16,684 nucleotides of DNA from a virus (taxonomy: Duplodnaviria > Heunggongvirae > Uroviricota > Caudoviricetes), in IMG/VR virus record IMGVR_UViG_2526164618_000010; one strand, 5' to 3'. The notes under the pieces were generated by a model that searched no databases, was not told the origin of the DNA, and saw only the letters and a program-made list of their open reading frames with translations. A program made the position numbers and the translations under genes. Below, in pieces: positions 9,235 through 9,868 of this stretch (positions within the stretch are counted from its first letter, which is position 1; each line of letters begins with the position of its first letter).

Positions 9235-9657
9235 TCAATGCACTACGACAGAATCGCCGGGCGACCCACCACCGCTGAAATGTGCTTTCCGGTAAACGGC
9301 CTGGACAGCATCATCATGCGCATCAATTGCCGTACTCAACGCTTCCTGCGCCGCCAGTAATGCACGGCGTTCCAGGGTATCGAAGATACAGAGTCGGTGA
9401 CGCAGCTCACGCGGAAGAATTGCCAGAACCGCAGGGATCAGTTTCTGAATTTTTTCCCTTTGCGCTTTCGTTTCACCTTTCAACCAACGGTGATAGATAT
9501 TCTGCTGATTGTTCCAGTCCTTGCCTGGTACCAGAGACAATTCGCCGCCCCCCTGCCGCAGATATTCTTCAGTAATTGCGTTAGCGACCCACGCCTGCCC
9601 TTTTTCGGCTGCCAGGGCTAACAGCACTGATTCGATGTGCTCATGCCTGATTTTCAT
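9235..9657 (-). CDS. YdaT-like protein (140 aa), second gene of the Cro-side operon
   Basis: MKIRHEHIESVLLALAAEKGQAWVANAITEEYLRQGGGELSLVPGKDWNNQQNIYHRWLKGETKAQREKI… Overlaps the DicC-like stop by 17 nt; SD GGAAGGTGA upstream. Family assignment is from memory of Rac YdaT. Confidence 0.6.
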   Translation of the reverse strand: MKIRHEHIESVLLALAAEKGQAWVANAITEEYLRQGGGELSLVPGKDWNNQQNIYHRWLKGETKAQREKIQKLIPAVLAILPRELRHRLCIFDTLERRALLAAQEALSTAIDAHDDAVQAVYRKAHFSGGGSPGDSVVVH

Positions 9658-9868
9658 GAATCACCTTCCCAGGTCGTTTTGCCTTACGATATTCGTCATA
9701 AACTTTGGGGTCGTACTGAAGTTCCCCGCCAGATGCCTCTTGCAGGCGCATCGCGCGACCTTCAGGAACCAGTTCCCCCCATGCAGCAATGCTTGCCAGC
9801 CTAACTCCTGCGGCATTGGCAAGCTTTGTTTTGCTGCCAAAAAACGCTATAGCATCAATTTTCAACAT
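9641..9868 (-). CDS. dicC: Cro-like regulator (DicC / YdaS-like), 75 aa
   Basis: MLKIDAIAFFGSKTKLANAAGVRLASIAAWGELVPEGRAMRLQEASGGELQYDPKVYDEYRK… Divergent from the repressor gene; SD AAGGAG 7 nt upstream. Confidence 0.8.
   Translation of the reverse strand: MLKIDAIAFFGSKTKLANAAGVRLASIAAWGELVPEGRAMRLQEASGGELQYDPKVYDEYRKAKRPGKVIHENQA

Follow-up and report, generated by a model that had tools for sequence, protein, structure and literature searches.

Two overlapping genes that face a DicA-type repressor raise the question of whether they form a toxic pair disturbing growth or division of the host, as the initial annotation of this DNA proposed by reference to YdaS and YdaT of the Rac prophage, or whether they are parts of a prophage control circuit. 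The genes are located in a 16,684-nt stretch of DNA (IMG/VR record IMGVR_UViG_2526164618_000010), the whole of which is referred to below as the window. The analysis of this stretch leads us to the view, to which we assign a probability of approx. 80%, that the region 9235–10480 represents a lysis-lysogeny (immunity) switch, belongs to a defective lambdoid prophage, and combines a Qin-type DicA/DicC module with a Rac-type ydaT gene, and that DicA, DicC and YdaT are the analogues of CI, Cro and CII, respectively.

Identification of the genes

The ORF list and the sequence revealed that both minus-strand ORFs (9641–9868 and 9235–9657) start with ATG and share 17 nt (9641–9657), exactly as originally described. 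The three genes of the locus had been assigned to Cro-like DicC, YdaT-family and DicA-type proteins, and profile searches placed all of them above the curated cut-offs of these families. The first minus-strand ORF (dicC, the Cro analogue; 75 aa) matched the DicC family (NCBIfam NF007282, 4e-47; 158 bits, cut-off 130) and Pfam P22_Cro (3e-13; 49.7 bits, cut-off 30.2), which are the best families for this protein in NCBIfam and Pfam. Its score against Pfam YdaS_toxin was 20.4 bits, which is under the cut-off of 30 and leaves the protein outside the YdaS family.

The divergent gene dicA (9945–10352, plus strand), whose start codon is separated from that of dicC by a 76-bp intergenic region, encodes a CI-analogue repressor of 135 aa (NF007257, 3e-71; 237 bits, cut-off 101), which aligns with the family over its full length (residues 1–135) and matches Pfam HTH_3 at residues 13–64. 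Pfam gave no match to a peptidase S24 or other self-cleavage domain in DicA, and helix-turn-helix domains alone were found; the K-12 protein has likewise been described as short and devoid of a RecA-dependent self-cleavage domain (PMC10448788).

The second minus-strand gene, ydaT (9235–9657; 140 aa), is of the Rac type and lies between the cro-like and the replication genes, in the order dicC, ydaT, O-like initiator, DnaC-like loader. Its product matched PF06254 (5e-11; 43 bits, cut-off 21), a family that Pfam names YdaT_toxin, as well as PHROG 163 (6e-37), which is labelled "CII-like transcriptional activator", and it could be aligned end to end with PDB 8bt1 (CP-933P YdaT) and PDB 3c4r. The fold expected from these matches is a POU-like helix-turn-helix domain followed by a C-terminal tetramerisation helix, i.e. 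that of a CII-like tetrameric helix-turn-helix activator.

The protein is identical to YdaT of the K-12 Rac prophage at 132 of 140 positions (94%; 8 residues differ), and the recognition helices of the two are the same. Residues implicated in DNA binding (H56, R57 and W58) and in the tetramer helix (L107 and A110) of Rac YdaT (PMC11879457) are all kept. A sensitive DNA search gave 91.8% nucleotide identity between the window and K-12 ydaT genes, and the dN/dS ratio for this pair is 0.08. Judged by these comparisons, the protein first described as "YdaT-like" is the orthologue of K-12 Rac YdaT, which experiments have characterised as a tetrameric CII-like activator and not as a dedicated toxin, and the gene is intact and evidently under purifying selection between lineages.

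Operators and predicted promoters flanking dicA

The dyad CCTTAG-N6-CTAAGG, previously put forward as a plausible operator, is located exactly at 9877–9894 (operator 1, CCTTAG-ATTTTC-CTAAGG), just downstream of the −10 hexamer of the dicC promoter, and it overlaps the dicC Shine-Dalgarno sequence AAGGAG (9875–9880). This interpretation is strengthened by two observations. Operator 1 shares with Oc of Qin, whose counterpart it is, both the TTAG-N6-CTAA core and the location adjacent to the dicC promoter. Moreover, the exact core occurs three times in the 16.7 kb (9879–9892, 9930–9943 and 10462–10475) against an expectation of 0.14; all three sites adjoin dicA, and none of 200 shuffled sequences reached this number.

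The third half-site reported alongside the dyad does exist (CCTAAG, 9914–9919), but it really forms the right-hand part of a middle, imperfect operator (operator 2, CCGTAG-AGAAAC-CTAAGT, 9903–9920), which occupies the position of Qin Om and whose core, GTAG-N6-CTAA (9905–9918), carries one mismatch. The dicA-proximal operator 3 (9928–9945), the counterpart of Oa, contains the exact core TTAGAATTCCCTAA (9930–9943), which abuts the dicA ATG, and overlaps the predicted −10 hexamer of the dicA promoter. Two further operators, TTAGGTTTTTCTAC (10426–10439; one mismatch) and TTAGGTTATTCTAA (10462–10475; exact), are associated with a predicted PL-like (dicBp-like) promoter downstream of dicA (10424–10478, plus strand), composed of TTGATC (10449–10454), an 18-nt spacer and TAAATT (10473–10478). 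The perfect site at 9930–9943, both PL-like sites and the palindrome at 9648–9663 described below are elements that the initial annotation did not contain.

The sequence of the operators varies together with that of the helix-turn-helix regions of DicA and DicC in at least four immunity types linked to the same ydaT, which is the pattern that would be expected of real operators. In Qin, genetic evidence identified Oc (TTGTTAGTCATAACTAACAA) as a DicA site in which one base change abolishes binding, and Oc was the one site bound by K-12 DicA, with neither Om nor Oa occupied (PMC3441716). Of the five sites in the window, some may therefore be used by DicC alone or have no function at all.

A sigma-70 consensus scan of the region 9100–10700 recovered none of the switch promoters, because all of them have weak hexamers, and they were therefore placed by alignment with K-12 and by a relaxed scan. 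The predicted dicC promoter (PdicC, the PR analogue; 9895–9923, minus strand) consists of a −35 hexamer TTGACT (9923–9918), a 17-nt spacer and a −10 hexamer TGGTTT (9900–9895). The latter takes the form TAGTTT in 12 related loci, and the window is one of 7 loci with TGGTTT. With so poor a −10 sequence, expression of dicC and ydaT may be very low even in the absence of repression.

The predicted dicA promoter (PdicA, the PRM analogue; 9908–9936, plus strand) has a weak −35 hexamer, GAGAAA, and a −10 hexamer, TAGAAT (9931–9936), detected by the relaxed scan 8 nt before the dicA ATG. A TAnnAT hexamer is present 8–9 nt before this codon in all four immunity types. Since the ATG at 9945 is not preceded by a Shine-Dalgarno sequence, the mRNA is predicted to be leaderless, as was found for K-12 dicA by TSS mapping (PMC4681348).

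The YdaT-box at the dicC/ydaT junction

The 17-nt overlap accommodates the last five codons and the stop codon of dicC together with the first codons of ydaT (minus strand), and the junction reads gggaagGTGATTCATGAAAATCAGgcatga on the gene strand. The start codon of ydaT lies at the centre of a perfect inverted repeat, TGATT-N6-AATCA (9648–9663; gTGATTCATGAAAATCAg on the minus strand), within its spacer, and the repeat shares positions 9648–9657 with the overlap. The repeat has a single exact match in the window, where 0.01 would be expected by chance. Its 16-bp core, TGATTCATGAAAATCA, is identical to the core of the DNase-footprinted YdaT-box of Rac, ATGATTCATGAAAATCAA (PMC11879457), and it fits the consensus of the CP-933P YdaT site, TTGATT-N6-AATCAA (PMC9986795). 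The core is invariant in all of the Rac-type and CP-933P-type loci examined, whichever cro gene lies upstream, and the box is kept in Rac, CP-933P, PEC178 and phage 673R7.

The Shine-Dalgarno sequence of ydaT, read from the sequence as GAAGGTGA (9661–9668, minus strand), is located within the 3′-end of dicC. At the junction, the 3′ terminus of dicC is thus combined with the translation start and ribosome-binding site of ydaT and with a site that YdaT itself is predicted to bind, so that the overlap is more than compact coding.

A relaxed search for the box, allowing up to two mismatches, yielded 10 matches in the window against 9.5 expected and was uninformative; the sole relaxed match worth noting is a one-mismatch box at the stop codon of ydaT.

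A candidate YdaT-dependent promoter antisense to dicC

The loci containing the box were grouped by upstream sequence, which gave 12 mutually unrelated contexts. In 10 of them a TAnnnT hexamer in antisense orientation starts 28 or 29 nt upstream of the ydaT ATG, and in one further context it starts at 30 nt. By comparison, TAnnnT has a background frequency of 0.022 per position; none of the other offsets was enriched across the 12 contexts. Examples of the hexamers found in register are TACGAT (window; 9685–9690, plus strand), TATGAT (Rac), TACAAT (CP-933P) and TATGCT (PEC178).

If TACGAT is taken as a −10 hexamer, the centre of the box falls at −41.5/−42.5, which is the classic position of a class II activator. 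This geometry points to a PRE-like promoter, activated by YdaT, whose transcript would start at a predicted position near 9697 and read antisense through dicC into dicA. The transcript from lambda PRE is likewise antisense to cro and continues into cI.

The hexamer lies within conserved codons of dicC (EYRK), and its conservation among DicC loci alone is therefore uninformative. An alternative pair of hexamers, −35 TTCCCA and −10 GATATT (9666/9688), overlaps TACGAT and was ranked second, because TACGAT alone sits in the register that is conserved across contexts. As for a distal reverse promoter, approx. 190 bp from the box, the only candidate (TTGTTT-18-TAGCAT, 9826–9855) is weak, with 7 of 12 matches, and lies in the variable half of dicC; it was not adopted.

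In the case of CP-933P, YdaT-dependent activity of the promoter PRE933P was obtained with a fragment of approx. 130 bp (PMC8630535). When the published primers were mapped onto the sequence, this fragment was found to hold both the box and the corresponding TACAAT. The YdaT-dependent promoter described in Rac, PracR4, is not adjacent to the box, but is placed approx. 190 bp away, inside ydaS (PMC11879457). We located it in K-12; it has no counterpart in the window because dicC replaces ydaS.

These data permit a wider proposal, which we make tentatively and at somewhat less than even odds: YdaT-family proteins may activate, in the manner of class II activators, a PRE adjacent to the box, and the box and TAnnnT, 32–33 bp apart (centre to centre), may constitute a portable cassette of the cro/ydaT junction, which travels with ydaT when immunity modules are exchanged. 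Were this so, the Rac model, with its YdaT-dependent promoter approx. 190 bp away, would have to be revised, and there would be an explanation both for the conservation, at the nucleotide level, of the 3′ half of dicC across immunity types and for the position of the mosaic joint within 24 nt (9648–9671) common to both parental types. The conserved distance between box and candidate −10 hexamer is the only mildly new element here, and it would refine, in a testable manner, the picture of how YdaT-family regulators act.

Proposed operation of the switch

The elements described above can be assembled into the following circuit. DicA would bind the TTAG-N6-CTAA operators and thereby keep silent two promoters, the PL-like one (rightward) and PdicC (leftward, the PR analogue), the latter of which would drive the replication genes in addition to dicC and ydaT, while sustaining its own leaderless mRNA from PdicA. 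DicC would act on the same operators and switch dicA off. YdaT, for whose translation the separate Shine-Dalgarno sequence within the terminal part of dicC is presumably used, would bind the palindrome straddling its own start codon and, from a position at about −41.5, activate the antisense PRE-like promoter (−10 TACGAT, 9685–9690). The resulting transcript would run against dicC and on into dicA, which would favour establishment of the repressor.

In K-12, DicA and DicC form a bistable switch (PMC10448788), and the YdaT-box and its binding by YdaT tetramers are known for orthologues of the protein described here (PMC11879457, PMC9986795). By analogy, the activities of the orthologues (binding of DicA to Oc, the bistable switch, the leaderless dicA mRNA, binding of the YdaT tetramer to its box and the antisense promoter) probably hold in the hybrid as well.

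Mosaic origin and distribution

The sequence relationships described above identify the locus as a recombinant, in which a ydaT module of the Rac type has been joined to a DicA/DicC immunity module of the Qin type. It is a recombinant example of the well-known lambdoid immunity region, and its mosaic nature reflects ordinary lambdoid module exchange. The initial annotation, which regarded the location of the gene pair opposite DicA rather than RacR as mosaic, was right about the mixed descent of the genes, but the layout opposite DicA is normal for Qin, since dicC and ydfX of K-12 overlap by the same 17 nt as dicC and ydaT of the window and ydfX belongs to the YdaT family; the allele alone is unusual.

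Of 5426 complete E. coli genomes, 1514 contain a Rac-type ydaT, and a 161-nt probe for the junction was covered to at least 80% in only two of the 5426. Approx. 1400 further genomes are matched by one half of the probe or the other (the ydaT side, up to 9671, or the dicC side, from 9648), and the existence of these two classes indicates that the parental types share the segment 9648–9671, the site of the joint. Exact-pattern scans revealed the hybrid junction also in S. flexneri, one more E. coli and 26 IMG/VR contigs; the junction of Shigella flexneri SFBU1023 is 99.5% identical to that of the window over the 580 bp compared, and the window may thus well derive from Shigella.

The hybrid loci carry at least four types of DicA, DicC and operators, and the variation between them starts near 9785, in the middle of dicC. 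Rac-type ydaT was also found behind unrelated cro genes in PEC178 and phage vB_EcoS-673R7. We are dealing with a natural swap, in which the CII-like regulator of Rac has been joined to Qin-type repressor/Cro modules of several specificities. Such a swap across immunity types suggests that the YdaT-box/PRE cassette may work independently of the immunity module.

Prophage context and alternative interpretations

The closest complete relative, E. coli FDAARGOS_944 (99.6% identical), contains a lambdoid prophage adjoining ybhA and modC, with the gene order int, xis, RecE/Gam-like genes, Rha, DUF1391, repressor, cro and ydaT, followed by O-like, dnaC-like, DUF977 and lysis genes. The same backbone is interrupted by IS elements in the window. 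The gene for a ydfA-like DUF1391 protein (10555–10710, plus strand; PF07151, 3e-26) is the first of the PL-like operon, and tblastn and blastn searches of the window for Rem, DicB, KilR and DicF gave nothing significant.

Alignment with FDAARGOS_944, in which the O-like relative is intact, allowed the lesions in two replication genes to be called. The gene for the O-like initiator (8519–9157, minus strand; PHROG 2509, 2e-79) is truncated as a result of an 11-nt deletion at 8562/8563. The DnaC/YdaV-like helicase-loader gene (7627–8373, minus strand) is split by a premature stop codon (8032–8034; base change at 8034) into two ORFs, which match positions 1–113 and 133–248 of NF009043. Since both genes are broken, the start of replication by the switch has been lost in the window copy.

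This decay, i.e. the IS elements, the 11-nt deletion and the nonsense mutation, together with the weakened −10 hexamer of PdicC, could also be taken to mean that the locus is an inert relic, whose YdaT, deprived of the racR-ydaS operators and PracR4 as its cognate targets, exerts no feedback on the repressor and, if expressed at all, acts at most on promoters of the host, e.g. that of rcsA. The published Rac targets are indeed missing from the window together with the ydaS and racR sequences containing them, and the Rac-identical recognition helix keeps binding to host rcsA plausible. We nevertheless consider this interpretation unlikely: the box and TAnnnT have kept the −41.5 geometry in the window hybrid and in 28 hybrid loci, ydaT has remained intact under purifying selection between lineages, and dicA and dicC are likewise undamaged, as are the cores of all five operators.

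Far less probable still is a toxin-antitoxin or "toxic pair" function of DicC and YdaT that would serve to arrest growth or disturb cell division and would be restrained by DicA, as suggested by the Pfam names YdaT_toxin and YdaS_toxin, by the filamentation and death of K-12 upon expression of Rac YdaT (PMC11879457) and by gene overlap, which is common in TA pairs; against it stand the assignment of DicC to the P22_Cro/DicC family, the lack of toxicity of CP-933P YdaT and the demonstration that YdaS and YdaT are Cro and CII analogues rather than a TA system (PMC8630535), the same argument made by Jobling from genetic context (PMC5917428), the link between Rac YdaT toxicity and transcriptional over-activation of host rcsA instead of an enzymatic activity (PMC11879457), and the gene order cI-like, cro-like, cII-like, O-like, P-like, which is that of a lambdoid early-right operon.

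The DicC/YdaT pair is thus very probably not a toxin-antitoxin module; what has been published on orthologues speaks against an intrinsic poisoning activity that a partner neutralises by protein-protein binding, and the framing of the pair as toxic has been overtaken by the work on CP-933P and Rac (PMC8630535, PMC11879457, PMC5917428). With the locus read as an immunity switch, the annotation of genes labelled "toxin YdaT" in databases is corrected, in that at this locus they make up the Cro and CII side of an ordinary prophage switch. Having the same recognition helix as Rac YdaT, the window protein might likewise induce host rcsA; given that Rac YdaT can do so, the hybrids may matter for the physiology of Shigella and E. 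coli when the repressor fails.

Comparison with Qin, Rac, CP-933P and lambda

The closest parallel to the upper part of the switch is the cryptic Qin prophage of E. coli K-12, in which dicA and dicC are also divergent and ydfA (DUF1391) is the first gene after dicA. The layout of Oc, Om, Oa and dicBp in Qin is matched position for position in the window, with three TTAG-N6-CTAA sites in the intergenic region and more after dicA. PdicC of K-12 (TTGACT-17-TATCTT) has the same −35 hexamer as that of the window at the matching position, and K-12 dicBp (TTGACC-17-TAATCT), with TTAGTCATGGCTAA between its hexamers, is laid out as the PL-like promoter. In both cases TAnnAT is located 8–9 nt before a dicA ATG lacking a Shine-Dalgarno sequence. 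Identity between the window and K-12 proteins amounts to 81 of 129 aa (63%) for DicA and 57 of 75 aa (76%) for DicC.

The operator cores are flanked by CC..GG in the window and by TTG..CAA in Qin, and the immunity specificity of the window is therefore probably different. The gene following dicC encodes an intact Rac-type YdaT of 140 aa in the window, whereas in K-12 it is of the 183-aa YdfX type, truncated to 96 aa; K-12 YdfX is the truncated N-terminus of a YdaT-family protein of 183 aa which is intact in other strains. Unlike Qin, the window has no dicF, dicB or rem detectable by search.

The resemblance to Rac, also a cryptic prophage of K-12, is concentrated at the start of ydaT, where the same 16-bp box core lies on the ATG and TAnnnT (TATGAT in Rac, TACGAT in the window) occupies the same antisense position. 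In contrast, Rac has RacR as repressor and YdaS as Cro where the window has DicA and DicC, ydaS and ydaT are 22 nt apart, whereas dicC and ydaT overlap by 17 nt, and PracR4 and the YdaT sites of the racR-ydaS intergenic region are absent from the window. Further downstream, the initiator gene is ydaU in Rac and phrog_2509, with TGTAACGC-N5-GCGTTACA palindromes, in the window.

CP-933P of E. coli O157:H7 carries the box TTGATTCATGAAAATCAA followed by TACAAT at a distance matching that in the window, although the two YdaT proteins are only approx. 30% identical and the CP-933P repressor, PaaR2, is unrelated. Lambda CII is structurally unrelated to YdaT and binds direct repeats flanking the −35 hexamer, whereas the YdaT site is an inverted repeat. 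The general plan is nevertheless the one predicted for the window: both CP-933P and lambda have a leaderless mRNA for the CI analogue, a Cro analogue, and a CII analogue with a site at its own 5′-end, and in both of them the CII analogue turns on an antisense promoter of the PRE type.

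Palindromes and defects in the replication region

Analysis of the region surrounding the gene of the O-like initiator (8519-9157) revealed a 21-bp palindrome, TGTAACGC-N5-GCGTTACA, which occurs three times in the window against an expected 0.07, at a spacing of approx. 200 bp. Two of the copies lie within the initiator gene (8771-8791 and 8978-8998) and the other (9170-9190) is located between ydaT and O. Of the 17 related loci with the same initiator type, 15 retain the full set of three copies; K-12 Rac, in contrast, lacks such palindromes. These elements could be (i) origin or initiator binding sites, or (ii) an attenuator hairpin.

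Comparison with the intact copies in FDAARGOS_944 (the closest complete E. coli relative) revealed that the O-like initiator is truncated by an 11-nt deletion at 8562/8563, and that the DnaC/YdaV-like loader is split by a nonsense mutation (8032-8034). This prophage is unable to replicate from the O-like/DnaC-like module.

Variation at the immunity switch

The −10 hexamer (9895-9900) of PdicC, the lytic promoter of dicC, is TGGTTT in the window and in six related loci, whereas 12 others, among them the FDAARGOS_944 prophage (99.6% identical), carry TAGTTT. The A-to-G substitution falls on the most critical position of the −10 hexamer, and the promoter may, to judge from this change, be locked down.

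A second sequence resembling the YdaT-box (TGATT-N6-AATCA), TGATTGAAATTAATCG (9222-9237, gene strand), differs from the box by one mismatch and overlaps the stop codon of ydaT. Loci sharing the same downstream initiator module conserve it, but neither K-12 Rac nor CP-933P has a counterpart. Because YdaT tetramers can hold two sites, a loop of approx. 425 bp, bracketing ydaT between the YdaT-box and this putative site, is conceivable.

In the case of the YdfX-type loci, the start codon carries TTGAACAATGAAAATCAC, a poor palindrome. Two of the compared loci contain the Qin-type dicC/ydfX junction (L002, 3621-3650; L003, 3990-4020), and in L003 the direct repeat TGAACA reappears 20 nt further on from the start-codon TTGAACAATGAAAATCAC. 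This 183-aa branch of the YdaT family may recognize a different site.

Accessory elements and the PL-like operon

The prophage contains a sok antisense RNA together with a hok-type locus, is interrupted by transposase genes of the IS66 and IS3 families, and carries, on the minus strand, a fragment of RecE (exonuclease VIII) (regions of this group: 5709-5884, 1969-3332, 4109-4948, 11157-12430, 14295-15424 and 15449-16093). The IS at 11157-12430 separates the ydfA-like genes from the Rha-like gene.

Rfam matches to isrK (61 bits) and C4 antisense RNA (76 bits), listed for the region 12984-13172, sit in the 5′ part of a mechanically called ORF (12825-13781), before aa 50-239, where its Ash and Rha domains lie. 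A module of this kind could provide the inducer for the DicA repressor, which has no self-cleavage domain; the arrangement in the PL-like operon resembles the c4-ant antirepressor module of the P1/P7 type.
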